This document shows, in pieces, positions 43,346 to 64,000 of a DNA stretch of 64,000 nucleotides. The position numbers and the translations under genes were made by a program. Within the stretch, counting starts at the first letter, position 1. Every line of letters starts with the position of its first letter. The notes beneath the pieces were generated by a model. It saw nothing but the letters and a program-made list of their open reading frames with translations, was not told the origin of the DNA and searched no databases. This DNA is from Amoebidium appalachense (Eukaryota; Protista; Ichthyosporea), in NCBI GenBank assembly GCA_963693365.1, contig CAVNZM010000011.1, positions 1,532,489 to 1,596,488 of the forward strand, read 5' to 3'.

Positions 43346-43999
43346 GTGAAACTGCGCCACCAGGTGGTTTACACTGACCGTCTCAGTCTGTCAGCCATCA
43401 GTCAGGCGTTTTTCCCATGACGTGAGCCAAAATAGTGAACCAATCAAACGCCGAAGACTAAATCTATAATTGGATAAGTGGGAACCAATAGAAAAATATG
43501 GGAACGGATTTTGGAATTGATTGGTTACGCATTTGGTGCTCACACATCCAAATTTGAAAGAAAGAACCATCTGGAAGCGAATTCATTATCTGCGTGTGCA
43601 ACCACCGTGTCGATTGCATACGGCAAAAAATACAATATAAACATATTACTTCATATTGTAATAAACAGTAGCTCTTTTATATTCAAAATCCTATACATCT
43701 ACCTGTTTTTGGGCAGTGCTGAATGTCTCAGCCACGTTGCATTCCTGAATTCGCCAAATCTCCGAGAACGACACTGGATTGGCCGTTGGGCCAGCTAATA
43801 GATTTAGTTGAGCTTCATTGTTGGACTAGTCACGTGGCCTGGTAACTTTGAGATCACACCACACCAAACCATCTCCGATCCGATCGCGATCAATCTATTT
43901 CCCACTTCCCACTTTTCCCACTTAAAAATTGAAAAAGAGAAAAAAAAGAGACAAAACAAACGATACAGCATTACCCACTTCTAAGTGGGAAAGTGGCCA

Positions 44000-44024
<25 letters not shown>

Positions 44025-44030
<6 letters not shown>

Positions 44031-44310
44031 AAAGCTAAGTCTACACGAGAGAGAGAGAGAAAAGAGAGAGAGAAAAAAGCTAAGTCTACACGAGAGAGGA
44101 GAGAGAGAAAAAAGCTAAGTCTACACGAGAGAGAGAGAGAAAAGAGAGAGAGAAAAAAGCTAAGTCTACACGAGAGAGAGAGAGAGAGAAAAAAGCTAAG
44201 TCTACACGAGAGAGAGAGAGAGAGAAAAAAGCTAAGTCGGGAGAGAAAAAAGCTAAGTCTACACGAGAGAGAGAGAGAGAAAAAAGCTAAGTCTACACGA
44301 GCTAAGTCTT
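44025..44310. repeat. Subterminal array of AAAAAAGCTAAGTCTACACG units separated by variable (GA)n
   Basis: About 8 copies plus a partial copy. Confidence 0.92.
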
Positions 44311-44317
44311 GACCCGG

Positions 44318-44555
44318 GCAGGGGGGGGGCAGGGGGGGGGCACGTGAGGCAGGGGGGGCACGTGAGGCAGGAGGGGCAGGTGAGGCAGGGGGGGCACGTG
44401 AGGCAGGAGGGGCAGGGGGGCAGGGGGGGCAGGGGGGGCAGGTGAGGCAGGGGGGGCACGTGAGGCAGGGGGGGCACGTGAGGCAGGGGGGGGCACGCGA
44501 GGCACGTGAGGCACGCGAGGCAGGGGGGCACGTGAGGCACGTGAGGCAGGGGGGC
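44318..44555. repeat. G-rich array of GCACGTGAGGCAGGGGGG units (E-box CACGTG core)
   Basis: More than 10 imperfect copies, followed by a G-run and (TA)n at 44638-44672. Confidence 0.9.
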
Positions 44556-44634
44556 CGGGGGCCGGGGGGGGGGGGGGGGGGTTTATTTGGAAAATATTCA
44601 CCAAACATATCGAGTAACAACACAATGAAACTTT

Positions 44635-44675
<41 letters not shown>

Positions 44676-44823: not shown

Positions 44824-46007
44824 CTATTCATCAGGCTTTGACTCGTCTTCGATTCTCTTCTGCCAGGCCGCAATTTTAGCCTGTTTAGCCTGCTCCTGTG
44901 TCAATATATTCTTCCTTTCCAGTTTACAAATATTCTTGCAAGTATCCATATATTCAGAAAATGCACGTTTTCTACTCTCTGGGTTATTACAGTCGGCAAT
45001 GTTGTTGGGTGCGGGCGATTGGGGCGAGGGAGCCGACTTAGACTTCTCAGACTTCTTGGGCTTAGACTTCTTGGGCTTGGAGTGCTTTTGAACACCGGCA
45101 TTCGCGATCTTCCGAAGTGCCTCGGCAGGCCCGGGGGGGTCTTGCCCACCGATGGAATCGCCAACTTGCGGCCAGTGGTCTTACTGATCCCATTAGAGAC
45201 GACGGGCTGAGCGACAGGCGGACGATCTTGAGTGGTGTCATCGTCAGAGGAAACATCGATCGGAGCGGTTTGGGGGGCGGCGATTGGATGGCGTGACTCG
45301 ACAAAGATCGGATTGCCCAGTTCATCGAACCGCGAGGCTGGCACATCGATAACCACGTTGTCCTGGCTCTCACGATTCTTCTGCATAAGACTGTTGAACT
45401 CTTTGAGACAGATAGCCCCCTTGTTGTCATCGTTGTCATCGTTGTCATCGTTGTCATCGTTGTCATCGTTGTCATCGTCATCAGATGAAGACGAAGACGA
45501 TTCGGTATCAGACTTACTACTGGAGCTCCTTGCCGAATTGTGATCACCCGCCTTAGTATCATCTGGGTCTTGCTCGGCCATCTCGGTGTCGACATCTTGA
45601 GGCGGAACCATGGGGGCGACATCTTAAGGCGGGGCGATGGGGGCGGCACCCATAGACTGGTCGAGATCACCGGCACGTGATTCGACATTCCGAGCAATCT
45701 TGGCGTTGCGGTTGCTACTCTTGCAGTAAGAAACGATGGCGGTCCTCAGACTCTCTTCGTCTTCTGAAGTGAAACCCCTCGGGTATTGCGGTATCCCTTC
45801 AGGTAACATACACTTGATAGCAGAAAGGATTTCCTTGAGCCCCTCGTCGTGGGTATAGTCGGCAAAAGTAGCCATCAGATCACGGACAACACATCCGAAC
45901 CCAGCAACGCGCACAAGGTTTTTGACATTCCTAGGAATGGCAAGGGCCGCCTCGATTGCAGCACCATCAACCCCCAAGTCGTAGTCTCGAGAGCTAAGGT
46001 TAGACAT
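44824..46007 (-). pseudogene. ORFan (acidic DDN repeats, Ser/Pro/Arg-rich) interrupted by one in-frame TAA; probable 71-nt intron
   Basis: ATG at 46007 (MSNLSSRDYDLG). The TAA at 45626-45624 is in frame with the 45611 ORF. A GT..AG segment at 44966-44896 joins to the final exon EQAKQAKIAAWQKRIEDESKPDE*. Confidence 0.6.
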
Positions 46008-46244
46008 GTTGAAAACAGCCTCGTTGAGAGCTAGAGTAGATGTGAAGAGAAAGCTGCGACTGTAGGATGAGCATACTGACACACACGCAACACTTCTTAT
46101 AGCCAGGAGACACACAACGTAGCGACAAAAACAAAGTATCAAGAGACATCCATTAATTGGACCGCCCGGTTTAAGATTGTTGTACACCAATCACAGAAGG
46201 AGGATAAAATAACAAAAAAAAAAACAACAACAGAAATATCACAC

Positions 46245-48098
46245 ATCAGATTGCGCGTTCGACACGATAGGGTCTTCGAACTCTTGACCACACGACCACG
46301 CCCCAACCGCGCGTTCCGATTTGTCGCCACACAGAACCCGTGTTTCCGTCCCACCAATCAGATTGCGCGTCCGACACGACAGGGTCTTCGATGATGCTCC
46401 TACTCTTGACCGCAGTCCCGTCACCACGACCACGCCCCAACCGCGCGTTCCGATTTGTCGCCACACAGAACCCGTGTTTCCGTCCCACCAATCAGATTGC
46501 GCGTCCGACACGACAGGGTCTTCGATGATGCTCCTACTCTTGACCGCAGTCCCGTCACCACGACCACGCCCCAACCGCGCGTTCCGATTTGTCGCCACAC
46601 AGAACCCGCGTTTCCGTCCCACCAATCAGATTGCGCGTCCGACACGACAGGGTCTTCGATGATGCTCCTACTCTTGACCGCAGTCCCGTCACCACGACCA
46701 CGCCCCAACCGCGCGTTCCGATTTGTCGCCACACAGAACCCGTGTTTCCGTCCCACCAATCAGATTGCGCGTCCGACACGACAGGGTCTTCGATGATGCT
46801 CCTACTCTTGACCGCAGTCCCGTCACCACGACCACGCCCCAACCGCGCGTTCCGATTTGTCGCCACACAGAACCCGTGTTTCCGTCCCACCAATCAGATT
46901 GCGCGTCCGACACGACAGGGTCTTCGATGATGCTCCTACTCTTGACCGCAGTCCCGTCACCACGACCACGCCCCAACCGCGCGTTCCGATTTGTCGCCAC
47001 ACAGAACCCGTGTTTCCGTCCCACCAATCAGATTGCGCGTCCGACACGACAGGGTCTTCGATGATGCTCCTACTCTTGACCGCAGTCCCGTCACCACGAC
47101 CACGCCCCAACCGCGCGTTCCGATTTGTCGCCACACAGAACCCGCGTTTCCGTCCCACCAATCAGATTGCGCGTCCGACACGACAGGGTCTTCGATGATG
47201 CTCCTACTCTTGACCGCAGTCCCGTCACCACGACCACGCCCCAACCGCGCGTTCCGATTTGTCGCCACACAGAACCCGTGTTTCCGTCCCACCAATCAGA
47301 TTGCGCGTCCGACACGACAGGGTCTTCGATGATGCTCCTACTCTTGACCGCAGTCCCGTCACCACGACCACGCCCCAACCGCGCGTTCCGATTTGTCGCC
47401 ACACAGAACCCGTGTTTCCGTCCCACCAATCGGATTGCGCGTCCGACACGACAGGGTCTTCGATGATGCTCCTACTCTTGACCGCAGTCCCGTCACCACG
47501 ACCACGCCCCAACCGCGCGTTCCGATTTGTCGCCACACAGAACCCGCGTTTCCGTCCCACCAATCGGATTGCGCGTCCGACACGACAGGGTCTTCGATGA
47601 TGCTTCTACTCTTGACCGCAGCCCCGTCACCACGACCACGCCCCAACCGCGCGTTCCGATTGGTCGCCACACAGAACCCGTGTTTCCGTCCCACCAATCG
47701 GATTGCGCGTCCGACACGACAGGGTCTTCGATGATGCTTCTACTCTTGACCGCAGTCCCGTCACCACGACCACGCCCCAACCGCGCGTTCCGATTGGTCG
47801 CCACACAGAACCCGTGTTTCCGTCCCACCAATCGGATTGCGCGTCCGACACGACAGGGTCTTCGATGATGCTTCTACTCTTGACCGCAGCCCCGTCACCA
47901 CGACCACGCCCCAACCGCGCGTTCCGATTGGTCGCCACACAGAACCCGTGTTTCCGTCCCACCAATCAGATTGCGCGTCCGACACGACAGGGTCTTCGAT
48001 GATGCTTCTACTCTTGACCGCAGCCCCGTCACCACGACCACGCCCCAACCGCGCGTTCCGATTTGTCGCCACACAGAACCCGTGTTTCCGTCCCACCA
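46245..48098. repeat. 134-bp tandem array: 13 full copies plus one shortened first copy
   Basis: Units start at 46357, 46491, 46625 and so on every 134 bp. Copies are near-identical, each with CCAATCAGATTG and GCGCG motifs. Confidence 0.98.
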
Positions 48099-48183
48099 GA
48101 CTAGCCGATTGGCGTGTCTGTTACGAGACCAATAATTTGTCGCTCGGGCGGTGTCGATATTTTCACAGCAATGATAAGCAGAA

Positions 48184-49164
48184 ATGTCAACCGACAACGA
48201 AGAAATTCTAAGCGGAATTCGGAATTCACTGAGCGCCACACACGATGACATCGTCAGATTGTTATCGAAAATGCCAAAAGAAAGCGACACCGCTGGATCG
48301 GGAACAGTTGGGGGTGGCACTGATGTCGACGACCCAAACAAAATAGACGACATTAAAAATATAATAAACATGTTTAACAGAACCTCCACACAGACACTCA
48401 AAATTTTGAACCATTTCACGACGATGGCTGCTCATTTGCAACCAGGCACAACAGAAAAAACCAAAGACGATCCACTCGAGAAGGGATTGGAAAATATCAT
48501 GTCGCAAATAAGCAATGCGATCAAGCTCTTAAATAATCAGAACAGGCTTATAAATTCATTACAAGAGACGGAAAAGGATAACATTAGGCTTCACCACGAA
48601 CTCGCCAATTACAAAAGACTCTACCAGGAAAATAACGAACCCCAACAGAAAACGGCCACATCGAGGGACCCAAACATCCATAGAATTGCATTTCTGGATG
48701 TACACGGCGGCCGCGTATTCACACATGGATCGTCTCCGTGGATGATATACGACGGGACAGTTCACGGGGCAATATCTTCAGGACTGATCCACTTCTCTGG
48801 AGACAAACAGAGCCCCTGTTGGACCGTCAAGGGTGCTTTTGAAGGCACATATGTTGCGTTTCCACTGCACGACTGTGGAACGGTCACGGCCGTCAAATCC
48901 GGCTCGACAACAATCTCAAAAACACTGGCGAGATGCGAGTCTTTCTTCGACGACAAAGCATTTGCATGTGCATCCCTCAAGGCATACCAAGTGACACTCG
49001 CGTCAAGCCGAACAATCGCGACTCTCACGACAAATTTCTTTGTCGGCCACGAACGCAAGCTCGACCCGTACGCACAATCCACAACACAAACGCAACACAC
49101 ACATGGCTGCCCTGCAAGGGACGCCGCACCCACCCGAGGATACATCGAATCAGTGGTCATATGA
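48184..49164 (+). CDS. Hypothetical protein, 326 aa; N-terminal coiled coil and beta-rich C-terminal domain
   Basis: Long, non-repetitive, intronless ORF with heptad-like segment LENIMSQISNAIKLLNNQNRLINSLQ. Confidence 0.75.
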   Translation: MSTDNEEILSGIRNSLSATHDDIVRLLSKMPKESDTAGSGTVGGGTDVDDPNKIDDIKNIINMFNRTSTQTLKILNHFTTMAAHLQPGTTEKTKDDPLEKGLENIMSQISNAIKLLNNQNRLINSLQETEKDNIRLHHELANYKRLYQENNEPQQKTATSRDPNIHRIAFLDVHGGRVFTHGSSPWMIYDGTVHGAISSGLIHFSGDKQSPCWTVKGAFEGTYVAFPLHDCGTVTAVKSGSTTISKTLARCESFFDDKAFACASLKAYQVTLASSRTIATLTTNFFVGHERKLDPYAQSTTQTQHTHGCPARDAAPTRGYIESVVI

Positions 49165-49468
49165 GACTAACCCATTATTTTACTTGCTATTATCGAGCAT
49201 GCACGGAACGGGGAACAACACACAGATACAGATACAGTTTATATATAATGTTTGATGGATACAAACTTTGGCAGTGCTGGCAAACAGAAGCAAAGACTAT
49301 GAACCGTCGACACATGTCGGTGTGCAATTACATATCTTAGTGCCAACACCGAAACCAAATGACAGAACATGGTGTGTAAATTGAATACTAATAAGCGAGC
49401 ACGAAAGCAAAAATAGCCAGCTGTGTAGCTTCAAATCGTTAGTACACCGGGCAATAGTAGCCCACACA

Positions 49469-50779
49469 TCACTCGATCTTCCACCGAAAAACCTGAAAGA
49501 TACTCCCTCCATCGGCGGTCACGTGTGCCCCCAAAACAACGAATCGACTGGCGACACTCATGGTCAGCGCGTGCACGACACCATCCAGAAACACGCGATG
49601 CTGGCTGACAAGACGCACCACATCGTCAGCGCCGACTTCGTATATCAGCACATCGCTATCCCCTCTACTGAAACCCAGGCGACCAACATACAATCGGTCG
49701 CCCCCGCGGTACAACACCGTCCTCTCGTACATATCCACCCAACAAGTACATAACGCACGCTTGGCAAAGTATCGATGTGTGGGCTCGAGGGGTGCCTTTG
49801 AACAGAATGCACACCCGACTTCATCACCACACCAATGAGGTCTACAGGTCGTCAGCATATCCAATCTGCATTCCCCAAGAAGTCGGCCGTCCCGCAGACC
49901 GATCGCGTCCACCACCGCGAGCGTCCCGTCCTCACCTGGCGCATGATTGTGGTACAGAACACGGATATCGACACTCGACACCGACAACACCCCCATCGCG
50001 CCCATCCACCCACCTAGACAGACACTCCAGTTCCGCGCACCCGTGACCCAATCAACCGACACAACAAACGTCGATCCTCGCTCTCCCCGACACAACACAA
50101 CAAGCGAGTCGCCCACAGAACACGGATGCTCGGAGACCACATGTCGGTCCATCGACCAAAGCGGCAACCCGGGTCCTTTCCCAGCCCCGGCAGTACCGGT
50201 CCCATATCCCCGGAGCTGCGGACAGGCCCAGTCACCCAGATCTGGGCTGCTGTGGATCAAAAATACCACGACCCCGTGGCGACCGCTGTATCCAACGAGA
50301 CGCGCACCGGTTACATCGAACGGCAGCAAGACGTCCAGCGCGAGTATGTCACCCGACGCGGCCCCAACCCGCCTATCCGCGTTTGCACTGCCCGGTGACG
50401 CGCGCAGCAACGCTGATTGGCCAACGCCAGGTTCCGCGCGATGGCGATTAACCAACGAGATTGTACATTTGCCCCACACAACCAACGTCGGATAATCGAC
50501 TACCAGCACGACGTACGCTGTGGTCAACTCGCAAAACCGCGCCAGACCAGCGCTCGCGAAGCCAACGGGGCCCGTCTCAAGGCTCCACCTCTCGACACCC
50601 CCAAATGGATTGTAGGCACGGGGTCGGGCTAGGAACACGGAGGCTCCTTCGACAGGATGGTTGAAAAAGCACAGCGGCACACAACTCGGCCCGGTCGTCG
50701 CAAAACGCATCTTGGGGTTCACACGGACAAATCCAACCAATGATCGAAACGTCGGGCTCGCGGTCGATGACATCGTCAT
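49469..50779 (-). CDS. Hypothetical protein, 436 aa; possibly a beta-propeller
   Basis: Long ORF with PQQ-repeat-like segments VSVDWVTGARNW and AIGLRDGRLLG. The fold is inferred. Confidence 0.65.
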   Translation of the reverse strand: MTMSSTASPTFRSLVGFVRVNPKMRFATTGPSCVPLCFFNHPVEGASVFLARPRAYNPFGGVERWSLETGPVGFASAGLARFCELTTAYVVLVVDYPTLVVWGKCTISLVNRHRAEPGVGQSALLRASPGSANADRRVGAASGDILALDVLLPFDVTGARLVGYSGRHGVVVFLIHSSPDLGDWACPQLRGYGTGTAGAGKGPGLPLWSMDRHVVSEHPCSVGDSLVVLCRGERGSTFVVSVDWVTGARNWSVCLGGWMGAMGVLSVSSVDIRVLYHNHAPGEDGTLAVVDAIGLRDGRLLGECRLDMLTTCRPHWCGDEVGCAFCSKAPLEPTHRYFAKRALCTCWVDMYERTVLYRGGDRLYVGRLGFSRGDSDVLIYEVGADDVVRLVSQHRVFLDGVVHALTMSVASRFVVLGAHVTADGGSIFQVFRWKIE

Positions 50780-50902
50780 TTATAATCGTCGATGACGCAA
50801 GCAGAACAAGACTCGATGACGCAAGCAGAACCCAGACTCGATGACGTAGGCACCACGACATCGCCGAAAACACCACAAAATATTATGTGTGTGTAATAGC
50901 AA

Positions 50903-51328
50903 ATGGGAAAACCAAACACCGAGATCTCCAATGTAGAGAGCTTGAAGGGCGTTTTGCGTGACTATGCAACCCTCCACGCACAGATCAAGGAGCACGCGGC
51001 ACAGACAAAACCTGTTACCAAGAAAATGAATACTATAAAGAAGGCCATTCTGAAGTACATGTCATCTGGAAATGTCAGGTCACTCGAGCTTCCCACGAAA
51101 GACCTTCTGATTCTTCAAGAATCAATCAAAAAGCCACAACTAAGCGAACAGTATCTCCGCCGTCAGCTCGAAACGTACTTCAAGGACACGAAAAAGGCCA
51201 ACGACCTGGTATCCTTCCTGACTGCCATACCGGACAAAGACCTCGCCACAAAGCAATCACTCAAACACGTCGACAAGGACAACTATATAGAAACAGATTC
51301 CATCCTCGACGACGGCGACTCGGAGTAG
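50903..51328 (+). CDS. DUF5760-like small coiled-coil protein typical of giant viruses
   Basis: LKGVLRDYATLHAQIKE..KKMNTIKKAILKYM..VRSLEL..KKPQLSEQYL matches the family pattern as I recall it. Confidence 0.7.
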   Translation: MGKPNTEISNVESLKGVLRDYATLHAQIKEHAAQTKPVTKKMNTIKKAILKYMSSGNVRSLELPTKDLLILQESIKKPQLSEQYLRRQLETYFKDTKKANDLVSFLTAIPDKDLATKQSLKHVDKDNYIETDSILDDGDSE

Positions 51329-51780
51329 AACGTCCGACCCGAGAGACTCAATAAAGCAAAACAACATACCGATGCATCTTCCAACGTGATACGATTGAGC
51401 AACCAATTACAGCACGGGAATCTTTTAGCCCAAAACACTTGCATGACGTCTAGCCAATTAAAATAACAGAAAAGCAATTTGTAGATATATGACTGGTTGA
51501 AGATCAGCGATCCAACAAGTCAAGAAAAATGCGAGACATTTCGACAAACCAATCATTAATGACACATGGCAACAGCCCATTTGTTGACTGAATATCATCC
51601 AATCACCGATTTCCGATCGAAATAACGATTGGTTGTTGGTTCATCGGAAGTGAACGATTGGCTGCGCGACTCTTTGATAAAGAAAAAAACGTACAAAACC
51701 CAGCCCTGGCCAAATAAGCTGCCACAATGTACTAAATCGCTAGGCCGAAAATGCGTAAGAATTCGTAGATTCCGCGAGAT

Positions 51781-54237
51781 ATGGACCGAGCACAGTTTGC
51801 ATGCTTATTGCGCCTGTACGCCCCAGGCACTATTGGAGTCAGAGTTGGTGAAGATCGATATTTTGAGGCAGCGTTAGTGACGAGGGGAGATGATGTGTTT
51901 TTGGATGTGACTATAGATAAATCGTGCGCGTTGGGCGAGTGCACAGAAGACCACAACCACGTTTGTGTACCTTCTACAAAAACAGGACCAAATACGCCGT
52001 TCCACCATTTCATTCACGTTGCTTCACATTCTTCATCGCGCACACAGCCAGATGAACACATCACGACACCTTCGCTTTCTGATTTCCTCCGCCTGAGAAA
52101 AACAGCCGGGATACTAAGGCATGTAGCCGATGAGTTGAAAGTCCTCTATGTTGAACCTTTAACGGCTACACGTTTGACCGGTGTGAACACGTGGGTTTAT
52201 CCGTGTTCATTGGCAACATTTTTGCAACGTTTTACACCCGGAAAGACTTTCCGCCCTTCGATGACAATTCCGCCCCAGGACATAGATTGGTTGGCGATTG
52301 AAAGTTTCGAGTGGTTGCTCCCACAAGAGGAAGTGATTGATTTTCCTGTAGATTGGTTTCCCGATATCAATCTTCCACCCGCGACAGCACCGTCCTCTGC
52401 ATCCCCGTTCGATCTTCCACCCCTGACAGCACCGTCCTCTGCATCCCCGGCAGCTCCCACCACGGGACCCCAAACCACGACCGGCGGCACCAAAAACAGA
52501 CCAATTCTACCCAACACTCTCGACCCTCGGCAATTCGGGTTTCAGCCACAACCAATGACACGGCCTCTGCAGGCCTCTCCACAGCCTATACCATTTGCAC
52601 AGCCACGACTCTTCTCTCCTGGGGCACACACGGGGCAACACCAACCATTTTCCACGACCGGACTGTTCCATTCGCCTGCTGGGGCCCAGCAACAGAAACA
52701 GCTGCAGAGTCAGCGGCGAGGGGAGGCGCGAAATAACCGAGAGAGCGCAAGGTTGGATCGAGAAATGGAGCGAAAGAAGCGAAAGGATCGAGAGGACAAC
52801 AAGAGAGAGAAGGAGCGAGAGAAGGAGCGAGAGATGGAACGAGAGAAGGAGCGAGAGAAGGAGCGAGAGAGGAGGAGAGAAGGAGCGAGAGAAGGAGCGA
52901 GAGATGGAACGAGAGAAGGAGCGAGAGATGGAGCGAGAGAAGAAGGAGCGAGAGAAGGAGCGAGAGATTGAGCGAGAGAAGAAGGAGCGAGAGAAGGAGC
53001 GAGAGATTGAGCGAGAGAAGAAGGAGCGAGAGAAGAAGGAGCGAGAGAGGAGAAGGAGCGAGAGAAGGAGCAAGCGGAGGAGCGAGTGCGAGAGAAGGAG
53101 CGAGAGATGGAGCGAGAGAAGGAGCAAGCGGAGGAGCGAGAGAAGGAGCAAGCGGAGGAGCGAGTGCGAGAGAAGGAGCGAGAGAAGAAGGAGCGGGCGG
53201 AGGAGCGAGAGAAGGAGCAAGCGGAGGAGCGAGTGCGAGAGAAGGAACGAGAGATGGAGCGAGCGGAGGAGCGAGAGAAGGAGAGAGAGGAGCAAGTGCG
53301 AGAGGAGCGAGATTTGGAACGAGATCCACAGAACGAGGGAACGGAGCAAGATGAGCGCGAAGAGAACAAGGGAGCGGAGCGAGAGTTCGAACGAGAACGA
53401 GAGACTGAGAAGGAGCGAGCGGAGGAGCAGGAGCAAGACGTTAGACGGCCCGCGCGCCTCGCACTCCCACCCTCAGCCGACCCCTTGAGCGACCTATCCG
53501 GTCTACTCGGCGGCGACTCCGTGGCCACTATGGAGGTGGTTTCCACCGTCACGCGCCTCGTCGGCATGGTTTCGGAGCGGCACCGCGCGCAGATCGTTAA
53601 GCTCGAGCAGGAAAGCGCGACGCTGAAGCAAAATTTGAAGATCGCAGTCGTGGGAGGAAAAGAGACGAGGGAAAAATTAGACAAGCTTAGCGCGGAGAAG
53701 GACGCGAAGATCGAGGAGCTCACACGTCGTAACAACGCGGACTCGACAACGATCAACGGCCTCGAAGAGAAAGTTCGCAAACTCGAAGCCGAAAATACGA
53801 AATGGAAGGAGACCAAGGAAACGGAGCGAAAACGCCTCGAGCGGGAACTTAAAGAACTCGAGACGGAACTCGCTGGCGAGATAGGGAAGGTGGCCAAACT
53901 CACACGGGAGGTGTCAAAGCTCACACAGAACTATGAGACTGAACATAACAAGAACCAGAAATGGGAATCGAAATGGGAATCCTATTATTCGAGGATTGCC
54001 GAACTGGTCAAGGAAAAAGAAGACCTGGAAAAAGACATAGAATCTCGCGTCGAGGCCGGGGTCGGCGCCCGGTTGAAGGGTTTAATGGAAGTGTTCGAGT
54101 CGCAATCCGCCCAGAAAAGGCGGAGGTCGGAGGCGGATGATGGCGACGGGCGGGACGAAGAAACACCTCGCAGACGCCATCGCGCCGACGGCCCCGGCAA
54201 CGACGAGCCCCCCTCCAACGCGGCCGCGGCCTTGTAG
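51781..54237 (+). pseudogene. Large Glu/Arg/Lys-rich coiled-coil protein (~800 aa) split by two frameshifts in a GA-rich repeat
   Basis: The EREKE repeat reading moves from the 51781 frame to the 52595 frame (~52868) and then to the 53086 frame (~53045). The C-terminal coiled coil ends with an NLS-like KRRR. Confidence 0.65.
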
Positions 54238-54239
54238 AC

Positions 54240-54476
54240 TTACACACGGGAAATGTTGTAGTGTAGGGGGTACTCGTAGCTTGTGATGTCCCACCCGTTT
54301 TTGGTTGTCATGGTCGGTATGCCGGTCACATAGTCAAGTACACGATAGGATGGTTCCCATATGCGTTTTAGATGTTTCTTTTGGACTTTGTACTTTTTTC
54401 GTGCGTTTCGGAGCTTTCGGCGGTAGATCCGTTTGTCTCTTCTACAGTACCGTCCCTTGACATACTTGGGCTTCAT
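54240..54476 (-). CDS. Small highly basic protein, 78 aa
   Basis: MKPKYVKGRYCRRDKRIYRRKLRNARKKYKVQKKHLKR..., preceded by an AT-rich leader. Confidence 0.45.
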   Translation of the reverse strand: MKPKYVKGRYCRRDKRIYRRKLRNARKKYKVQKKHLKRIWEPSYRVLDYVTGIPTMTTKNGWDITSYEYPLHYNISRV

Positions 54477-54735
54477 TGTATAATATATTAACCATAAAGC
54501 AGTCATGGTGTCACTGGATCCGTTTTCACCCACCATACAGGCACCTGGCCACCCGGACCAGCACACTTGCACAAAAAAACAAAATTTCAAATTGATAAAG
54601 CGGTACCTGTTGATGCTCTATCTTACCGTACACCCCTTTGTCGTATATATACTGCCGATGCCGCTACTGCGACTGATGGCCGGGGCTGGGGTGTAGTCGG
54701 TGGACTGTGTCCATCTACACACATCGCCGTGCAAG

Positions 54736-55392
54736 TTATATAAAATCGGGAATGTGACAAATCGCTGTGTCTTGGTCCTCTGTCTCCCATCCCTGCAGCT
54801 CGTGATCTGCACGTATGTCTAACACTTTGGCCTGGAAACTCATTAATGTCTTGCCGTGCTTGGCCCACCACTCCTTGTCCCGCGGGATCTCGTCGATGCG
54901 CAGCGACCCGTCGCGCGGATCGAACTGCACAAAGTCCGCGACCTCCAGCCCCAGCACAAACAGCTGTGTCTGCACCTGCGCCACATAGTGCTCGGGGATC
55001 GGCTGTCCGTCCATGAACTTGCGCTTGTACGGCACCTTGATCTCCACCGCGCGCCCGCACAGCGTCACCCGGTCCGGGCTCGCCCCCAGCCACCGGTGCT
55101 CCGCGTGCCGGATCAGCCCCAGCTCGATGCACGAGTGCCCCGTCGCGCGCATGTACGCGTCCGCCGCGTTGGCCTCGTGCTTGTGTCCGAATGCCACGAA
55201 CACGGGGTCCACGACCCGCCGCTTCAGCCCGGACTTGTGCTCGATCAACTCGCGGCGGGACTCATAGGGATTCACACCCAGCGCGGCGCCCACGTCCGAG
55301 GCCGTGAGCATGCATGCGCGCGCGCGCAGCCACGCCGCGCTGCCCTGCGGGTACGGCACTTCGTGCTGTTGGATGCGAGTAATAAAGTCCAT
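54736..55392 (-). CDS. YqaJ-like viral recombinase / lambda-exonuclease family PD-(D/E)XK nuclease
   Basis: QGSAAWLRAR..LTASD, GHKHE, WLGASPD, VEIKVP, HYVAQVQTQL. Confidence 0.95.
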   Translation of the reverse strand: MDFITRIQQHEVPYPQGSAAWLRARACMLTASDVGAALGVNPYESRRELIEHKSGLKRRVVDPVFVAFGHKHEANAADAYMRATGHSCIELGLIRHAEHRWLGASPDRVTLCGRAVEIKVPYKRKFMDGQPIPEHYVAQVQTQLFVLGLEVADFVQFDPRDGSLRIDEIPRDKEWWAKHGKTLMSFQAKVLDIRADHELQGWETEDQDTAICHIPDFI

Positions 55393-55485: not shown

Positions 55486-57302
55486 TCACTCAGACACATC
55501 TCCCTTTGCACTTTTGAATACACTCACAACCAGGTCTCTGATTAGGTCATCCTCCATGAACTCCCTAGCCATCTCGAGCATTGCACCGGCAAAAGACATG
55601 TAATCTACACGGAAGAGCTCGCGCTCCACGTTCTTGTGGGTGAGTGCAGTGTGTAGGTACTTCTCGGCAAGAGCCAGGTGCTCCGAGGGCACCGGGAGAG
55701 CAAACAACAACCGCTTGTTAGGGCCTACGTGCCATGTAGCTGCCTGTTTCATACGACCCTTCACGTCCTTCAAACTTTGTCCGATCTTCAAACATGGCGG
55801 GTCACCATATTCAGACACAAACACGTAGATACCAGACTGCTGTTTGGTGCACACACGGTTCGTAACCCTTCGTAGCTGCTCGCTTGCATCTTCGTACTCA
55901 GGTGGGACATGATCGGACTTGGGGGCATAGGGTTGAAGCTCCAGAAGACGACACTGTGCCTCGATCTTCAAACGCTCTTCTCGTAGAATCGCTGCCTTCT
56001 TGTCACACAAAACACCCTCCTCGCGCATCCTTGCGATCTCCGTGTACACAGGAGATTCGGCAATACGGGCCTCCTTGTACAGACTTAGGGCAGTTTCCAT
56101 CTCGGCCTGGTTAGTCATGAACTGGGTGATGTCCCCGAGCCTGGGTCTCTTGTGCTCCCTCTCTGGGGTGCCAGCTGCATCCATCTCCCCCCTCACGCTG
56201 TCGCGCATGAACGCATTGGGTCCTGAGGGGTTAGCCTCTGCCGTGGCCCGGTTGCGCTCAATGTCCTCCACCAGTGTTTCGTCCCCACCTTCCAGACGCG
56301 CTATATCTTTGGCCCACTTCTCAATGATCGCGGAACCGTAGCGCGCGTTGGACGCAATCTTGAAGGTCAGCTTGACCAGAGATGTCGCCGGAACAGCAGG
56401 TGACAACTTCCCTCCCTTACCAAACGAGCAATTGGTCACTTTGACCAATTGGTCCCCTGTCGTATCCAATAGATGCCGGCCTATGTATTTTGCTGCAGCA
56501 CATCTGTCCAAGCCACGCACCAGCATTGTGTAGTCCACGAGACTCGCCACTTCACACCATCGACCTCACACACTCGGATGGCGTGGTCACCTATGCAAAT
56601 TGTGTCGCCCTTTTTTGTAACAACCTCATCCGCCATCGACATGAAATCGGTCTGTTCTGTCGCCATTGATGGAGAGACTGACGTGCTTGGAAGCATGCAC
56701 GGTACCTTTGTACCCATCACCTCGCTGTCCCAAAGCTTGCAGAGGGCGGGAAAGCAGTAGCGCAGAAACGGCGCGGTCAGCTCGAACGCGAACCAGGTCC
56801 CGCGGTACATCTCGATGGCGGGTATCAGACCGTGCGTTGCGAAGGCGTAGGCGACGGAGCCATCGGCGTGAGATATTGCGGGTAGCTTCTTGATCCGCGA
56901 AAACGCCCTTTGAACAAGCACCCGGGACGAACTTGGAGCCACGTCCAACTTTCCACCTTCCAGATCCATCGTCTCCACATCCATCCGAGTCAACTCCAAC
57001 ACCCGATCAATCATGTCCTGATTGTGCCTAACCCAATTGACAGGATTTTTCCATGTTCCGCCCGCCTCCTTGCTCCCGAGCGACGCGGAGTACCCCGCGT
57101 TGAAGAACACGTGCCCGTCGAACTTCGTCAGGTACGTCAGCACCTTCTCCCCGTCCGGCGCAAAGAACGGGCGCACGCCGGGCCACGCGGGCACCGACGA
57201 CGTGTCCACGCGCGGCTCCGAGTCGTGGCCCGCGGGCGGGCGCCAGTCGGGGCCAAGAGGGGGGGGAGAGTAAGAGGGTGGGGGAGACATGTTTGAAGTC
57301 AT
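55486..57302 (-). pseudogene. KilA-N-like + Bro-N-like + T5orf172 (GIY-YIG-like) protein with a single frameshift near 56547
   Basis: KilA-N-like GHVFFNA..NWVRHN..RGTWF. Bro-N-like IRVCEVDGVKW/ASLVDY is split across frames. C-terminal GIYVF..LKIGQS..RMKQ..AEKYLH..RELF. Confidence 0.75.
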
Positions 57303-57589
57303 TTCAGAGTAAGACTGCGATTTTATTTTGCGCGCGGCGCCTTTTGTACCCGGCCAGCGGGAGGGTGCAACACATCCACTTCACTCGAACTGATGGTCTG
57401 GTTAACCATTTCAAAGGCCTCAATTTGAGGCATTTGGCTGCCAAGTTACCCAGTGCCTAGCAAAATCACAACCGGTCACATTGACCGATTGCAGGCTGCG
57501 GGTTACGGCACACACACACACAACCAAAATGGCTATCGATCGATCACATTGATCGATTGCCAATTGCTTACCAAAATACACACCCGGGT

Positions 57590-59065
57590 TCAAACGCCGT
57601 CGATGGGCACAAAATCCAATTCCGGCAGCACCTGCTCCTGGTAGTAACGACCAAGGGCGTAATCCTTGCCCTCGCGGGTGTCGTGGACGTACCATTGCGG
57701 AACCTCGGGTCCCCACAAGCTGGTTGGGTTCAGCTCCGCATCCCTGTGCTGTTGGAGTGCGTGTGCGAACCCGGGGGGCATCGCTTCGCCGCGCCGCCAT
57801 TCAATATTGATCTTGAATGCAAATAGCTCTATGTAGCCCGGGGTGTATTCCATGTCATCGTCAAACTTTGTAAACGCGGGGAGAACAGTATTTGCCGCCG
57901 ACAGGAAATCCCGCACTGCCAGTGGCTTGGGCTGTCTTTCGATCAGCCCTTTGAGCTCTCCGGCAAAGCTGTCTGTCCCCGAGGGTGACTGAAAAATCTC
58001 CCGAATGCGCCGAGACATTGGCGCCATCGCAGCCTGCTTGATTAGATTGAGGATGTCCGATGTGGAATACGACTTGAGAAACATCCAGTACGCCAACTTC
58101 TGCAGGGCCTCTCGCGGGGTGTGAACCCCGTCATTGACTACTAGCAGCGTTGGGTCGACGCTCAGGGGATACTCCGCTTGGAACTCTTCCAATTTTTCCA
58201 ATATCAGTTCGAGGATGTCGATCGGTAGCGGCAGGTCAACAAACACGCGAACGGGAAATCGCCTCAGAATCGCCCGGTCCAGGTCGAACGGCAGGTTTGT
58301 CGCGGCCACGTACAGCATATGGTCATTGTTCTTGCGCAGCCCGTCGTACTCCGAAAGAAACTGGTTTGTGATCTTGTACGAGTTGCCCGACCCGCTCGCA
58401 CTGTTGCGGTTTCGGGAGCCCAGTATCGACTCGGCCTCGTCCAGAAACATGACAGTGGGACGCAGGCACCTTGCGAGCGAAAACACCGCCTGCACCGCCT
58501 TCTCCGAGTTGCCCTCCCACTTTGAGTTGAGCACAGCGGACGACACGTTCATAAACGTCGACCTGCCCACCTGCGCCAACTTGCTGGCAATAAACGTCTT
58601 GCCGGTCCCGGGTGGACCAAACATCAGAATTCCCCGCCCAGGCGTTCGCAGGCTGCGGAACAGTTCGGGGACAAACCGTGGAACAATAACGGTTTCCAAA
58701 AGCTTCTGCTTCGCCTCCTTCAGCCCATTAATGTTCATAAACTCTGCCAGGTCCTCGTCGCGTGGCTCGAGGCCGTCACCGTCGGGCGGGAAGACGATCT
58801 GTCTGATTGGGGTCGTGATCTCGCGGTTTTCTACGTCGTTGTGGATACTGGCAAAGATATCGCAGTTGGTCATGTAGTCCTTGTACAGCGCGTCCCTTTG
58901 CTCCGGTGTCAACTTGCTTGAAGCCCCCACCGCGTCCGCACGGTCCCTTGCACGGTCGGCGGTCAGCTGCCAAATCCCGGAGAACCATGAGGTGAGCGGG
59001 TCATCGTCCTCCGGTTCCTCCGTTCTGGGGCGTTTCGGGGGTCTGCCGCGCGGGCGTGAACTCAT
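57590..59065 (-). CDS. Spastin/katanin/Vps4-clade AAA+ ATPase (491 aa) with an N-terminal AT-hook-like motif
   Basis: Probable start MSSRPRGRPPKRPR. Walker A GPPGTGKT, pore loop SKWEG, Walker B FLDEAE, second region of homology ATNLPFDLDRAILRRF. Confidence 0.93.
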   Translation of the reverse strand: MSSRPRGRPPKRPRTEEPEDDDPLTSWFSGIWQLTADRARDRADAVGASSKLTPEQRDALYKDYMTNCDIFASIHNDVENREITTPIRQIVFPPDGDGLEPRDEDLAEFMNINGLKEAKQKLLETVIVPRFVPELFRSLRTPGRGILMFGPPGTGKTFIASKLAQVGRSTFMNVSSAVLNSKWEGNSEKAVQAVFSLARCLRPTVMFLDEAESILGSRNRNSASGSGNSYKITNQFLSEYDGLRKNNDHMLYVAATNLPFDLDRAILRRFPVRVFVDLPLPIDILELILEKLEEFQAEYPLSVDPTLLVVNDGVHTPREALQKLAYWMFLKSYSTSDILNLIKQAAMAPMSRRIREIFQSPSGTDSFAGELKGLIERQPKPLAVRDFLSAANTVLPAFTKFDDDMEYTPGYIELFAFKINIEWRRGEAMPPGFAHALQQHRDAELNPTSLWGPEVPQWYVHDTREGKDYALGRYYQEQVLPELDFVPIDGV

Positions 59066-59186
59066 TGCTCCTCGACTACAAAATCGGAAGCGGCGGAGGC
59101 GCACACACAACCAAAATGGCCATCGGTCATATTGGTGGGTGGCTGCCCAAAACCCGGCGTGAAAATTCCCGCGCCGGGGCGGGGCA

Positions 59187-59256
59187 TGGGGGCATGCGAG
59201 GCACGCGTGGCACACGTGGCTCGCCGGGCGGGCGTGCCTCCCAGGCCTCGCGGGCC
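59187..59256. promoter_or_regulatory. ~70-bp GC-rich dispersed motif, copy 1 (between the divergent AAA and zinc-finger genes)
   Basis: Identical to 61775-61844 except for one base. Function is inferred. Confidence 0.55.
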
Positions 59257-59325
59257 TCTCGGGCCTCTCGGGGGTGGGCGGGGGCATTTGACACTTTTTT
59301 CGTGTCTATATACGAGTCAAGGACG

Positions 59326-59769
59326 ATGGATCCCGCCACGTATGTCCCAAACGAGCACCATGACACCAAACCGTCTCTCCAAAAGCGACGCCGCACACAG
59401 GAACGACGGTTTAAGTGTGAACACAATGGCTGCCCAGCCATATTCTCCCGGCGCGACACCTTGCGAGACCACCAAAACCTACACACTGGAGCACGGCCCT
59501 ACGTATGCAAACAGTGCACAGCAGCTTTTCAAAACCCAGGCAGTTTGTTTGCACACAAAAAGGCTTGGCACAGCGACGAGCGAAAGCCAAGGTGGACAAG
59601 GAAACGGCTGGCGTGCCCAGCGGGGTGTGGCATCGAATTTACCTCGTACCTGTCGATGAGTTCGCACATCGCAACGTCGCATCCCGAGCCGGAGCCCAAT
59701 GTCACGACCGTTGCAGAATCATGCGGCAACCCATCCGCGATGGACGAAATAATAAAATGTACACATTAA
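59326..59769 (+). CDS. C2H2 zinc-finger protein (3 fingers, 147 aa)
   Basis: FKCEHNGC..F..L..H..LH, Kruppel-like linker TGARPY, YVCKQC..HKKAWH, CPAGC..HIATSH. Confidence 0.9.
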   Translation: MDPATYVPNEHHDTKPSLQKRRRTQERRFKCEHNGCPAIFSRRDTLRDHQNLHTGARPYVCKQCTAAFQNPGSLFAHKKAWHSDERKPRWTRKRLACPAGCGIEFTSYLSMSSHIATSHPEPEPNVTTVAESCGNPSAMDEIIKCTH

Positions 59770-59772
59770 TTA

Positions 59773-61233
59773 ATGGTACAACAAACAATGTCAGAGGCAC
59801 CAGTATGGGAAAGATTTGAAGACCTCACTCCAGACCCAAGCCTTCCATGGCACCCGTCCACCACAATCAGAGATGACCCATGGACGATGGAGGAGGCTGT
59901 TTGGTTTGTTTCAGCAAACATAGCGGGAATCGCTGGGAAAAACCAGTACATCATGAAGAATTACAACAGAGAGGGTCACATGGTCCATCAGATCATTTCA
60001 TCGCAGGTGGCAAAGAATGAACTTGACAAATACAGCTTCAAGATGACAGAAAACGGCAAGACTGTTGTGGTCATGGGTTCGAGGATCCTTCTGGATCCAC
60101 GAGTATTCAACTACTGCGGGGTCATCAGCGACCCAATGGATCCTGATCCGGTCACAGGCAAGCGAAAGTACACAAACAAGTCCACCATCCACCGTTTCTT
60201 CAACATGTTCCAAGGCTTCACAATTCGACACAACCCGGCCAATCAAATCAAATACGACGCAGTCGAGCCGTTCCGAAAGCATGCATTTGAGGTTCTCTGT
60301 GGCGGCGAGGCCAAGGACATGGAGGTGCTAGAGACGTGGGTGGCGCACAGATTTCAGAAACCCGGCATGAAGCCGAACACAGCGCTCGTGTTTGTATCCC
60401 TGCCCGGATGTGGAAAATCACAATGGTGGAAGGCAATCCGTGACATAATGGGTCCCGTATGCTCAGACACCATATCGGAGAAGTGCAAGATTGCCGGCCG
60501 TTTCAACCATCACCTACTCAACAAAGTACTCATCGTGTGCGAAGAGGTCATGTGGGGAGGTTGCCATGAAATGCACAACATCATGAAAGACAGAATCACC
60601 GGGAACAAAATGCAGCTGGAACGCAAGGGAGTTGATGTCGAGACAGTGGACACCTTCGAGTCGTACGTCATTCTTTCAAATGACCCATATGCGGTTAAGA
60701 TTGAGCGCGGCTGCCGCCGTTACTCGTGTTTCACTGTCTCCCCCATCCGCCGCGGAGACCAGCGCTACTTCTCGTGGTTCGCAAGCTACATCAAGGATTC
60801 CAATGTCCTCCAGGCCATCTGCGACTACTACACCCGGCTTCCCAACGTACCCGACGTGATGCCCTTCCCACGCGACAATTCCGCACGCCGCGCGCTCATG
60901 GAACGAGCACGACCAGATGAGGCCCAGTTTCTGATGGATCTTGTCAATGGTGAACACGAGCCTCATCTGCCCCAGATCAAGGACGGGGACAAGATTCCGC
61001 GGAGCGACCTATTCCAATTTTATTTGCGGTGGTGTGAGATCAACAACACACCCAAGAACACGCAGCTCACTTCTCGGAAGTTCGGCGAGGCTGTTCATGG
61101 AATACTCGGAGACCCAATCAACGTCCGCATCATCACACCTGGAAAGAACGTCGTAACAGCCCAATGGACGACGACTAACACAGGCAAGGCTTGGTGCTAC
61201 GTCATGACAGTCCAGAAAATCCGAGACATTTGA
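59773..61233 (+). CDS. SF3 (D5/DUF5906-like) helicase-NTPase with a C-terminal winged-helix-like region; no primase domain seen
   Basis: Walker A PGCGKS, GRFN..LLNKVLIVCEE (Walker B), ITG..ERKG, SN..RRY. Confidence 0.9.
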   Translation: MVQQTMSEAPVWERFEDLTPDPSLPWHPSTTIRDDPWTMEEAVWFVSANIAGIAGKNQYIMKNYNREGHMVHQIISSQVAKNELDKYSFKMTENGKTVVVMGSRILLDPRVFNYCGVISDPMDPDPVTGKRKYTNKSTIHRFFNMFQGFTIRHNPANQIKYDAVEPFRKHAFEVLCGGEAKDMEVLETWVAHRFQKPGMKPNTALVFVSLPGCGKSQWWKAIRDIMGPVCSDTISEKCKIAGRFNHHLLNKVLIVCEEVMWGGCHEMHNIMKDRITGNKMQLERKGVDVETVDTFESYVILSNDPYAVKIERGCRRYSCFTVSPIRRGDQRYFSWFASYIKDSNVLQAICDYYTRLPNVPDVMPFPRDNSARRALMERARPDEAQFLMDLVNGEHEPHLPQIKDGDKIPRSDLFQFYLRWCEINNTPKNTQLTSRKFGEAVHGILGDPINVRIITPGKNVVTAQWTTTNTGKAWCYVMTVQKIRDI

Positions 61234-61774
61234 TTAGTGTGCCGTGTTTTTGTGTCGTCTCTGAGTTGTCTCTGCTTCGTCTCTTAGCCATAAAATGCCG
61301 CATTTTCATTGGTTCCCGTGTCTCTGAGTGTCTCTGAGTTGTCTCTGCTTTCCTAAAAAGGAAATAACGCACCTGATTGGCTGTTCTTGTGTAAAACTCT
61401 TATAATTTCGGAAAATACATAATAAGAATTCATAGATATTGTTTGTTTATTGTTTGTCTCTGTGTCTCTGGGTTAACAGCATTATTGGTAATCAGGCGTG
61501 GGTGTCTTTGTTTTTACATATAAAATCTCACTCCAAGCTGCTTGGGGTTGGAAGGGTTAGACCCAGAGACAGCAGAGACACAACTACCACTCTCAATATA
61601 TGCTTTCAGACATTGGTGCTTATGGTTCTGGGTCTAGAGCTATAGTTGGAAGGGGAAGGGGGGGGTTGTCGGGATTTGCTATCAGGCACGGACAAGATAC
61701 GTCCAAGACCCAGAACCACATTGAACCAATAAATGAAACACGACGCTTTGACAACAGCAACCCAACACCAAGCG

Positions 61775-61844
61775 TGGGGGCATGCGTGGCACGCGTGGCA
61801 CACGTGGCTCGCCGGGCGGGCGTGCCTCCCAGGCCTCGCGGGCC
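61775..61844. promoter_or_regulatory. ~70-bp GC-rich dispersed motif, copy 2
   Basis: Near-identical to 59187-59256. Confidence 0.55.
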
Positions 61845-62022
61845 ACACGGTGGGGCGCGCTCGTGTGTTTTTGTGGTTTATTTGCGCGCTGCGCGTTTTG
61901 ACCCATCCTGTGGGCAAATGACCAACGCAAATACACACCCACCCCCACCCCCCACACAACCCTTAGGGTTTAGGCTCACATATGCGCAACCAATCACCAA
62001 GTTCGCCAGGTTCACCCGTCTG

Positions 62023-63051
62023 TCACGAAAATGCATGCATAAACGCGTGGCCCTCGAACGGGACTTCGAAGGCCACGGTGTCCATGTCATAATCCAGCTC
62101 GTACACTCTGCGTGGTGCAATACGAAGCACCTCCGTCCTGGTAGCATCCATTCCCAGCATCTGCCGCGACAGCACCCCCAACCCGAAGTGCCGGCCGAGC
62201 GCAATGTAAATCTGGAGGTAGAACGCATCCTCGCTGCCCACCGCCCTTCGCCCAACCACCGCTCCGGCCCTCCACGTCCCGTGCTCGTCGATCTTGGCCT
62301 CGACCCAGTCGCCTTGGACGATGACGTCCAGGGGCACAAAGCGCTCGGCCAGCTTCAGCTCGGCCAGCAGGTAGTAGAGACCCAGGCGCAGCGCGGGCTG
62401 CCCACAATGAAGCACCGGCCAGACCTCAAACATTTCTACCGTGCTGGCCTCCTCGTCGCTGGCCAACGTGTTCAATGCGTACACGGAACACTGCTCGTCC
62501 GGCACCGGCGCCGCGCGGACCGTCGCGCTCTCGACGACCTGGTGGAGCGGCCGAACCACGGTCGGAGCCGCCATCGCCTGCCCAAGCCTCACACCCCAGA
62601 CGTGCTCCGTCTCCTCGACGGTGATCACCTCGTCGTTGTCGTTGTCCGCATCGTCGAAGTCGGGGTGGGGGCACTTGCGGAGGAGAAACCCGAGGCCCGT
62701 GTCGTCGGGGATGAGGCTGCGCAGCGCCGGCGCCTGGAGCTCGTCGTACAGTGCACGCCACACCGCGCTGCCACGCCCTTCGAAGCGGGGGTCGGGAGGT
62801 GTGTAACTGTCCCGCTGGGTCCACCGCCCCTCCTCGTCGACGAACTGCCGCGGTACCGGCCCGGAGAGGATGACGTCGACCGGCCACACCCTCTCCTCCC
62901 CTGTCTTCGTGCTGAAGATCGCGGCGGTGCCCATGCGGATCGAGCCAGGCGCCTCGGGGTGCAGGTGCAGCGTGTAGAACAGCTCCGGTTGGTAGGCGAA
63001 CCGGGGCTCGCGGTCCTTACCGAGAATGTGAATACGCTCAATGTGCGTCAT
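62023..63051 (-). CDS. Hypothetical protein, 342 aa
   Basis: Long ORF with GC3-rich codon usage and natural composition, with a CCAAT-rich divergent promoter upstream. Confidence 0.75.
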   Translation of the reverse strand: MTHIERIHILGKDREPRFAYQPELFYTLHLHPEAPGSIRMGTAAIFSTKTGEERVWPVDVILSGPVPRQFVDEEGRWTQRDSYTPPDPRFEGRGSAVWRALYDELQAPALRSLIPDDTGLGFLLRKCPHPDFDDADNDNDEVITVEETEHVWGVRLGQAMAAPTVVRPLHQVVESATVRAAPVPDEQCSVYALNTLASDEEASTVEMFEVWPVLHCGQPALRLGLYYLLAELKLAERFVPLDVIVQGDWVEAKIDEHGTWRAGAVVGRRAVGSEDAFYLQIYIALGRHFGLGVLSRQMLGMDATRTEVLRIAPRRVYELDYDMDTVAFEVPFEGHAFMHAFS

Positions 63052-63541
63052 GATGTTGGCAATTCCAAAAGCCCACTGTCACGCTGCAGCAAGAGTGTGC
63101 TTTTGACAACACCGTCTTTGCTTATGTACCCTTGTGCCGAGCCGTTGGGTGGTCCCGTCGTCTCCCATTGGCTGCGGCGGTCCCGGGCTCTCACCTGACG
63201 CCAATCAAAATCCCCTATTCGGCCCTACACCGCTGTACATGTTCTCCAATCGGACACAACTGATCTAAGGCACTCAACGCTCATTGGCTGTGGAGGGAGC
63301 AGGCGCCGCACTCACAATGGCCAATCAACACACCCCAAACCAACCCCGAGTTGACTGCTGGGTGGCTGGGGGTGCCCGCGTTTCTCCCCAGCGCACGCGC
63401 CACGCCTGCCTCCCGGGCCGGGCCTGTGTGCCCCGCCCCCCCCCCCCCCCCCCCCCCCCCCGGCGTGCCCGCGTCGTGGGGATTTCAAACATTGAAACAT
63501 GTTGCACATGTCTGTTTTTTCTCTCGGTGTAGAGACAAGTG

Positions 63542-64000
63542 ATGCCTGATCTCGGCGAAGGCGTGGTTGTGCGGTGCCTTGACCTGGTGCACACCTTTCT
63601 GGCCAACCACGAGGACAGCGAGTTGTTCATGCGCGGGTACACAGGCCACCACCTGGTGTTGTACGTCAAGCAGATTATGGAGCTGGAAACAAACGAAAAG
63701 GTGCCAGCCGAAGACATCGAGAGTATGCTCTCGCGCCCCAGTGAAGCTTCCGAACACACACGGTTCTCGAAGAAACTCGGAAACCTCGTCGTCGCAGTCC
63801 GGGAACTGTTTCCCACACCGTGGGTCTGGACGGGGGTCGATGCGCGCACGTTCACGGCAGCGCTGGCGAGGGAGGTCCATCGCAAGGTCATGGACGGGCT
63901 GCTCGACAACCCCGGCCAGTACCGGGTGCGCTTCGCGCTTCCCGCCGGCTGCAGCCATCAGTACCTCGCGCCGTTCAAGATCGAAGACGCGTTGGACCGC
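63542..64000 (+). CDS. Hypothetical protein, partial (runs off the window; missing from the ORF track)
   Basis: Open from ATG 63542 (MPDLGEGVVVRCLDLVHTFL...FKIEDALDR) with no stop codon. Confidence 0.7.
   Translation, partial: MPDLGEGVVVRCLDLVHTFLANHEDSELFMRGYTGHHLVLYVKQIMELETNEKVPAEDIESMLSRPSEASEHTRFSKKLGNLVVAVRELFPTPWVWTGVDARTFTAALAREVHRKVMDGLLDNPGQYRVRFALPAGCSHQYLAPFKIEDALDR

Follow-up and report, generated by a model that had tools for sequence, protein, structure and literature searches.

A repeated giant-virus-type element with a likely defined left end beside intron-rich host genes

Where does host DNA end in the 64,000-nucleotide stretch of contig CAVNZM010000011.1 analysed here (hereafter the window), and what is the compact block of genes that follows it up to the right edge? 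An initial annotation of the letters had described a large virus-like element integrated beside host genes and apparently built for life in the nucleus. We find that this feature is real. Its most telling trait, absent from that annotation, is that the block belongs to a multi-copy family whose members share an edge and vary in their gene cassettes. On balance, we lean towards a large element related to Nucleocytoviricota, of which the left ~20 kb is visible: one that has integrated repeatedly and recently by a defined end, is transcribed by the host nuclear machinery and exchanges cassettes between its spacers, possibly aided by its own lambda-type exonuclease.

The change in composition at ~43.8 kb is as sharp as first described. 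The microsatellite fraction falls from 0.138 (1-43900) to 0.01 (43901-64000), and the observed-to-expected ratio of CpG rises from 0.48 (0.59 once repeats are masked) to 1.07 over the same intervals. Left of the switch lie multi-exon genes with GT-AG introns; on the right, the claimed compactness was borne out, with 81% of 48101-64000 coding in 14 gene spans and open reading frames (ORFs) that are essentially intron-free, with one plausible short candidate. The boundary itself stands, but its proposed position at 43900 does not, as the edge seen in other sequencing runs is 43821; here the junction reads CATTG followed by TTGG, the letters with which the element begins. The insertion is probably recent, for the element still keeps its CpGs although the host is poor in them. 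The host DNA showed no CpG loss specific to CGC, which would be a possible footprint of methylation as in Amoebidium (CGA 0.48, CGC 0.57, CGG 0.58, CGT 0.74).

The block recurs in other public runs at 98-100% identity and high depth. The segment 54300-61300 was present whole or in part in 20 of the 24 listed runs (four named studies and eight rows naming none; one run may be the source itself), and 14 runs held half or more of its words. Runs carrying the block date from 2011 to 2024 and bear three organism labels. Across 53330-64000, all 30 bins were covered in each of three runs (X1, X3 and X8); a further run (X20) covered 10/30 in short pieces. X8 contigs of 0.5-2 kb matched the block at 98-99.5% identity with a depth of 330-398, and the lowest-depth X8 contigs listed had a depth of 12-25, one of them being an 81% paralogue. 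Tens of near-identical copies are the simplest reading of this depth. We collected 58 coding differences between copies from the best-supported 80 of 486 rows; 16 of the 24 that fall in the YqaJ, T5orf172 and AAA genes are synonymous.

The likely left terminus of the element (43821..43990) begins TTGGACTAGTCACGTGG, with a single match in the window. Among the matches listed, three X3 contigs and two X8 contigs have loose ends before 43821, with flank agreements of 0.63 and 0.67, respectively, which is near the value for unrelated sequences (data from 20 of 103 rows). The assembly switch in the window coincides with this edge in the other runs, and a random mis-join is therefore unlikely. In X3, bins of the first 170 bp reach a depth of 3,658-4,577 versus 490-665 for pieces of the body, and from this very high summed depth we conclude that the terminus is also present as short or solo copies. 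In X8, the left 2.5 kb is ~1.3-1.5 times as deep as the interior (462-509 vs 330-370). The host flank 43320-43814 had no cover in 4/4 runs and was counted neither for nor against. We observed that the element adjoins a CCAAT-rich, promoter-like host stretch (43400-43820, five boxes) and that the X3 loose-end flanks also finish in a CCAAT-like word; for these two reasons, the element may prefer promoters. A ~250-bp host repeat in two to three copies (42755-43340) lies immediately to the left of the junction.

The repeat-rich terminal structure noted earlier was readily recovered. Subterminal repeats (44002..44673) consist of GA-rich 36-45-bp units (44002-44301), a G-rich array with a GGCACGTG motif (44323-44580) and (AT)18, and they are followed at 46291..48098 by a tandem array of 13.5 units of 134 bp with 99% matches and one CCAAT box per unit. 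The motif of the G-rich array returns in the internal spacers at 59184 and 61772, and a CACGTG motif occurs at the terminus and again in the subterminal array and in internal spacers. An Rfam scan of 40000-64000 gave no match, the terminal 180 nt folded no better than its shuffles (z -0.42), and a search with the terminal 20-mer returned no match.

Copies also differ at internal spacers. A variable cassette on the plus strand (59184..61850), containing a zinc-finger and a helicase gene, lies between two 79-nt direct repeats (59184-59262 and 61772-61850) that are 95% alike and have a GGCACG-type motif in common with the subterminal G-rich array. Contigs of X1 and X3 lack the cassette, with a joint from 59238 to 61848, and in X8 its depth is 99 versus 336 beside it. 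Similarly, 27-nt direct repeats (57515-57541 and 59102-59128) flank the AAA gene, which is skipped in one X8 contig by a joint from 57351 to 59163.

In order to assess the affinities of the element, 17 ORFs were scanned against Pfam. Five passed the cut-offs, a sixth stayed below threshold and the other 11 gave weak or no matches. The domains recognised by eye were thereby largely upheld: YqaJ (E 1e-22), T5orf172 (E 3e-4), AAA (E 3e-28), a C2H2 zinc finger (zf-C2H2, E 5e-11) and a D5-type superfamily 3 (SF3) helicase (DUF5906, E 7e-15; Pox_D5, E 1e-4, both past the cut-offs). For the DUF5760-like protein (50903..51328, plus strand, 141 aa), the likeness is weak, with E 1.6e-4 and 22.2 bits, under the cut-off of 27. 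The KilA-N/Bro-N assignment was not sustained; this likeness was seen only by eye, and neither Pfam, PHROGs, NCBIfam and PDB nor phage tblastn gave a match. Giant-virus-type accessory genes are thus present, as judged from the grouping of YqaJ, from T5orf172 and Pox_D5 past cut-off and from DUF5760 below it. HK97 capsid, terminase, portal and triplex, which are features of Mirusviricota, had no Pfam or PHROGs match in 16-17 ORFs of the visible part.

The gene of the YqaJ/lambda-exonuclease-family nuclease (54736..55392, minus strand, 218 aa) has a TATA-like box at -35. Nine cluster representatives, all nameless Logan proteins on short contigs, are 52-73% identical to the nuclease, after which identity drops to 36% or less. 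The tree comprised 35 rows from a 95-row quick tree, leaving out the long branches P0012, P0018, P0019, L013 and L019 as well as redundant rows. It places the window protein in the giant-virus-type group as part of a separate clade, formed with eight Logan-only proteins (support 100/99) within a group of 24 rows (99/96) whose internal branching order the tree does not settle. Among those loci of the group that were scanned for gene content, L043 carries VLTF3, PCNA and ribonucleotide reductase, L036 DUF5767, L021 DUF5901, L006 topoisomerase II, L022 TBP and L067 eukaryotic genes; across 99 YqaJ loci, no further gene in common with the element was found.

The helicase (59773-61233, plus strand) keeps the SF3 motifs, and its closest relative is 40% identical over 430 aa. 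A truncated protein was considered and rejected, since 12 aligned relatives (341-503 aa) likewise have no primase domain. Proteins P0094-P0109, ~460-500 aa long and encoded on short contigs from Logan and ENA, represent a stand-alone SF3 helicase family that may mark further such elements in other hosts. The single-domain AAA+ ATPase (57590..59065, minus strand, 491 aa) is eukaryote-derived and divergent: its tree confirmed a classic eukaryotic AAA+ protein on a long branch near the VPS4, spastin/fidgetin and PEX6 rows. The long branch and an identity of 41% or less to any of 90 rows argue against a host orthologue. Its N-terminus contains an RPRGRP motif, presumably an AT-hook.

No close relatives of the element were found in public viral or metagenome contigs. 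Peptide-pattern scans of viral contigs (with the helicase, the helicase alignment, YqaJ alone, AAA, the DUF5760-like protein and ORF 62023) returned no relatives, and an exact-sequence look-up of 10 element proteins in a collection of 15 billion found none. Of 20 relatives looked up, none bore a name. The proposal of an undescribed lineage is consistent with the results for YqaJ and the helicase. That the element is giant and nucleus-dependent is something we still infer; the visible 20 kb holds no hallmark gene, and such a fragment says nothing on the absence of an RNA polymerase.

How would such an element be transcribed? The reported enrichment of CCAAT boxes is pronounced. In the 3,015 non-coding bases of 48101-64000 we counted 21 boxes versus 8.8 +/- 2.9 in 500 shuffles (maximum 18; 0/500 reached 21). 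They cluster in the spacers 51329-51780 (six), 61234-62022 (six) and 63052-63541 (five), the last being a divergent spacer comparable to the other two, and 9 of 13 starts have a box within 220 nt. Their form is the same as upstream of host genes. Based on established eukaryotic promoter biology, we infer that these promoters are used by the CCAAT factor and polymerase II of the host. The view of a foreign, virus-type element with host-type promoters beside host genes, whose own genes are not host orthologues (AAA at most 41% identical), is supported. A scan for intron motifs yielded 26 motif-only candidates, of which one is plausible: 46 nt on the minus strand (46031-46076, GTATG...TAG) in front of ORF 45624-46007. 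The ORF breaks near 45132 and 56549 are better read as errors or decay than as introns, because other copies show indels there.

These observations can be arranged into a tentative course of events. The element genome, linear or circular, would enter the nucleus, and an integrase encoded beyond the visible part would join its end to host DNA. Transcription would then rely on the RNA polymerase II and CCAAT factor of the host, just as for the host genes nearby. Proteins may bind, or recombination may take place, at the subterminal arrays and at the recurring GGCACGTG spacer, and the YqaJ exonuclease might promote annealing between such repeats, leading to gain and loss of cassettes.

Several results weigh against the favoured reading of a repeatedly integrating, Nucleocytoviricota-related element. 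Its helicase, without a primase domain, belongs to a stand-alone family that has no family name and resembles, more distantly than this family, the NrS-1-type phage primase-helicases; on these grounds, and because it is absent from some copies, it is not the core D5 gene. The 17 ORFs of the visible 20 kb include no recognisable capsid, PolB, A32 ATPase, VLTF3, RNA polymerase or integrase. At the left end, no listed contig crosses the intervening repeats to join 43821-43990 to the element body and one X3 contig departs from the terminus at 43916; being unbridged, several-fold deeper and left at this point, 43821-43990 could be a short host repeat in its own right. The depths are sums, which do not give copy numbers and which free DNA would also increase. 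Moreover, the other five ORFs show no synonymous excess (7/34), the window copy has several frame breaks, and a TATAAA/TATATA-type box lies within 40 nt of only 2/13 starts.

Four competing explanations were weighed. A giant DNA transposon without a capsid, carrying captured giant-virus genes as cargo and with its transposase or tyrosine recombinase at the other end, would account for high-depth near-identical copies with a shared edge, subterminal arrays and modular cargo, for the absence of any virion gene from 20 kb, and for the surplus depth at the very end, which non-autonomous derivatives would produce. Yet no transposase or recombinase was found next to the visible end, most recognisable genes are virus-type with a synonymous excess between copies in three of them, and the divergent YqaJ paralogues (52-73%) look like a radiation of related viruses; we regard this explanation as rather unlikely. 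Unlikely, too, is a virus outside the classical giant viruses. It could be a mirusvirus, or else a mriyavirus- or Polinton-like virus of medium size whose replication gene is the SF3 helicase. Promoters of host type are in keeping with nuclear viruses, reproduction in nuclei and integration are predicted for mirusviruses (PMC12768974), Polinton-like viruses often exchange pPolB for SF3 helicases (10.64898/2026.06.19.733378), and divergent capsids can escape Pfam. Against this stand the grouping of YqaJ with Nucleocytoviricota-type contigs, the essentially intron-free ORFs with their one plausible short candidate and the fact that no morphogenesis or integrase gene of such viruses was recognised in the first 20 kb.

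The element could also be a passive giant-virus relic of a failed infection, multiplied by segmental duplication or host transposons, with the 43821 edge representing a short host repeat. This would agree with the deep and unbridged terminal 170 bp, with the frame breaks and with the published reading of 90 + 42 Amoebidium insertions (PMC11244446). The clean cassette loss at direct repeats, the mostly synonymous changes in three genes and the CACGTG motif common to terminus, subterminal array and internal spacers argue otherwise, and we consider a relic of this kind distinctly unlikely. A chimeric assembly, in which free virus or a contaminant was joined to a host contig, appears highly improbable: we saw no read or contig spanning the window junction and the high depth could stem from free viral DNA, but the join lies at the very base where contigs of other runs switch to unlike flanks, and the block persists in sequencing runs that span 2011 to 2024 and carry three different organism labels.

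We next asked how the element compares with known systems, as far as these are described in the accessible parts of the publications. In Amoebidium appalachense, giant endogenous viral elements (GEVEs) related to Mamonoviridae have inserted many times and fall into several clades; the authors of that study consider the insertions stochastic (PMC11244446). Like the element, they stand out as virus-type islands with few introns and dense genes, set in a CpG-methylated host rich in introns. They are enriched for transcription factors and for membrane-fission and tubulin-depolymerisation terms, an enrichment that, in our view, a VPS4/spastin-type AAA protein would give. In contrast to the element, they are described as divergent insertions bounded by methylation blocks, and the accessible text reports neither termini nor cassette exchange, nor does it name YqaJ. 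If the host is of that lineage, the element is probably already among the catalogued Amoebidium GEVEs; more generally, it may already be catalogued if its host has a published survey. The punuivirus of Chlamydomonas reinhardtii (10.1101/2024.09.03.611062) is similarly integrated and has exact ends, close to which lies a satellite array (within its long terminal repeats), together with end relics elsewhere and an integrase that is not identified. It differs in that it is present once, spans 617 kb, carries hallmark genes and has ACC-GGT termini and a 6-bp duplication, whereas the element starts with TTGG rather than ACC, appears high in copy number and has no hallmark gene in the visible 20 kb.

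Endogenous viral elements of phaeoviruses in Ectocarpus likewise have conserved termini at many sites, integration being part of the life cycle (PMC13236599), but their CC-CC junctions and the tyrosine recombinase near one end have no counterpart at the visible element end. Teratorn of medaka, a giant virus-derived element with subtypes and 30-40 copies per genome (PMC10175614), is a herpesvirus fused to piggyBac with CCYT ends and TTAA targets, none of which occurs in the visible part. Polintons, adintoviruses and Polinton-like viruses are also multi-copy endogenous elements with defined ends and swappable SF3 helicase modules; their genomes of ~30 kb are filled by capsid, A32 ATPase, pPolB and integrase, whereas of these traits only an SF3 helicase was recognised in the 20 kb of the element. 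As for the Plavaka-associated giant repeat (as defined in PMC11244446), neither a Plavaka transposase nor a tyrosine recombinase has a Pfam match at the visible end. Nuclear dependence is known in giant viruses such as medusaviruses, clandestinovirus, pandoraviruses and mollivirus (PMC11814242). GEVEs of Euglena are few and eroded (PMC12455990), and in a survey of 7,103 assemblies, 10 of 435 virus-rich assemblies had more than 30% near-identical viral regions, mostly of Polinton type (10.1101/2025.04.19.649669). In the literature we found no account of a high-copy family of giant-virus-type elements like the one in the window. Integrated giant viruses with defined ends are known, and a high-copy, near-identical family of such gene type is unusual.

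The remaining genes of the visible part offer weaker leads. An acidic/basic low-complexity protein (44824..46007, minus strand) is interrupted by a stop codon in frame (45624-45626) and by a break of the frame near 45132, and had no family match in Pfam, PHROGs and further library searches. It is followed by a 326-aa protein (48184..49164, plus strand) with an N-terminal coiled coil and sub-threshold coiled-coil matches only, and by a 436-aa protein (49469..50779, minus strand) for which an Atlas feature score of 0.85, under the lead limit of 0.9, gives a beta-propeller lead only. A large gene (51781..54237, plus strand) combines an Arg/Glu repeat tract, with frame breaks inside the repeat, and a coiled coil; next to it lies a small basic protein of 98 aa with weak matches (54240..54536, minus strand). 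The gene with the C-terminal T5orf172 domain (55486..57302, minus strand) reads as two ORFs that overlap (56481-57302 and 55486-56526) and is likely a single gene with a break near 56549. The zinc-finger ORF (59326-59769, plus strand) carries an HTGARPY linker, which we take to be of Kruppel type. It is in the same frame as the helicase ORF, separated from it by one stop and one codon (59769-59773) without a promoter-sized gap, and read-through or re-initiation between the two is possible. Downstream, a 342-aa protein (62023..63051, minus strand) shows likeness to the GNAT acetyltransferase fold in its C-terminal half (62023-62500; Atlas 0.87-0.88), a lead only; a chromatin-modifying role would suit a nuclear element. 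Single-sequence models of this and one other ORF were too poor for a fold search (predicted local distance difference test scores of 33 and 38, respectively). The last ORF (63542..64000, plus strand) leaves the window, so that the element continues rightwards.

On the host side, a gene at 3103-10078 (plus strand) has about seven exons, as read by eye, and five CCAAT boxes upstream. We assume an alpha/beta-hydrolase-like product; exon 1, scanned alone, had no Pfam match. A second long multi-exon gene (~15000-38726, plus strand) with hydrophobic exons probably encodes a membrane protein. A ~290-bp repeat lies in host introns, with near-identical copies at 7954-8224 and 9562-9862 and related pieces near 18550, 21450 and 26510.

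Giant-virus insertions are mostly interpreted as the accidental outcome of infections that failed, and exact, enzyme-made ends are documented, in the accessible accounts, for punuiviruses and phaeoviruses. A more far-reaching reading of the element, which we put forward as possible though doubtful, is an undescribed giant-virus-related lineage living as a self-amplifying transposon, with an exact end, insertions at tens of sites in one genome, host CCAAT promoters and swaps of the helicase and AAA cassettes at a recurring spacer, and thus a Nucleocytoviricota counterpart of Teratorn. A family of many near-identical copies with giant-virus-type genes, a common end and exchangeable cassettes would represent a third route of integration or a giant virus turned transposon.

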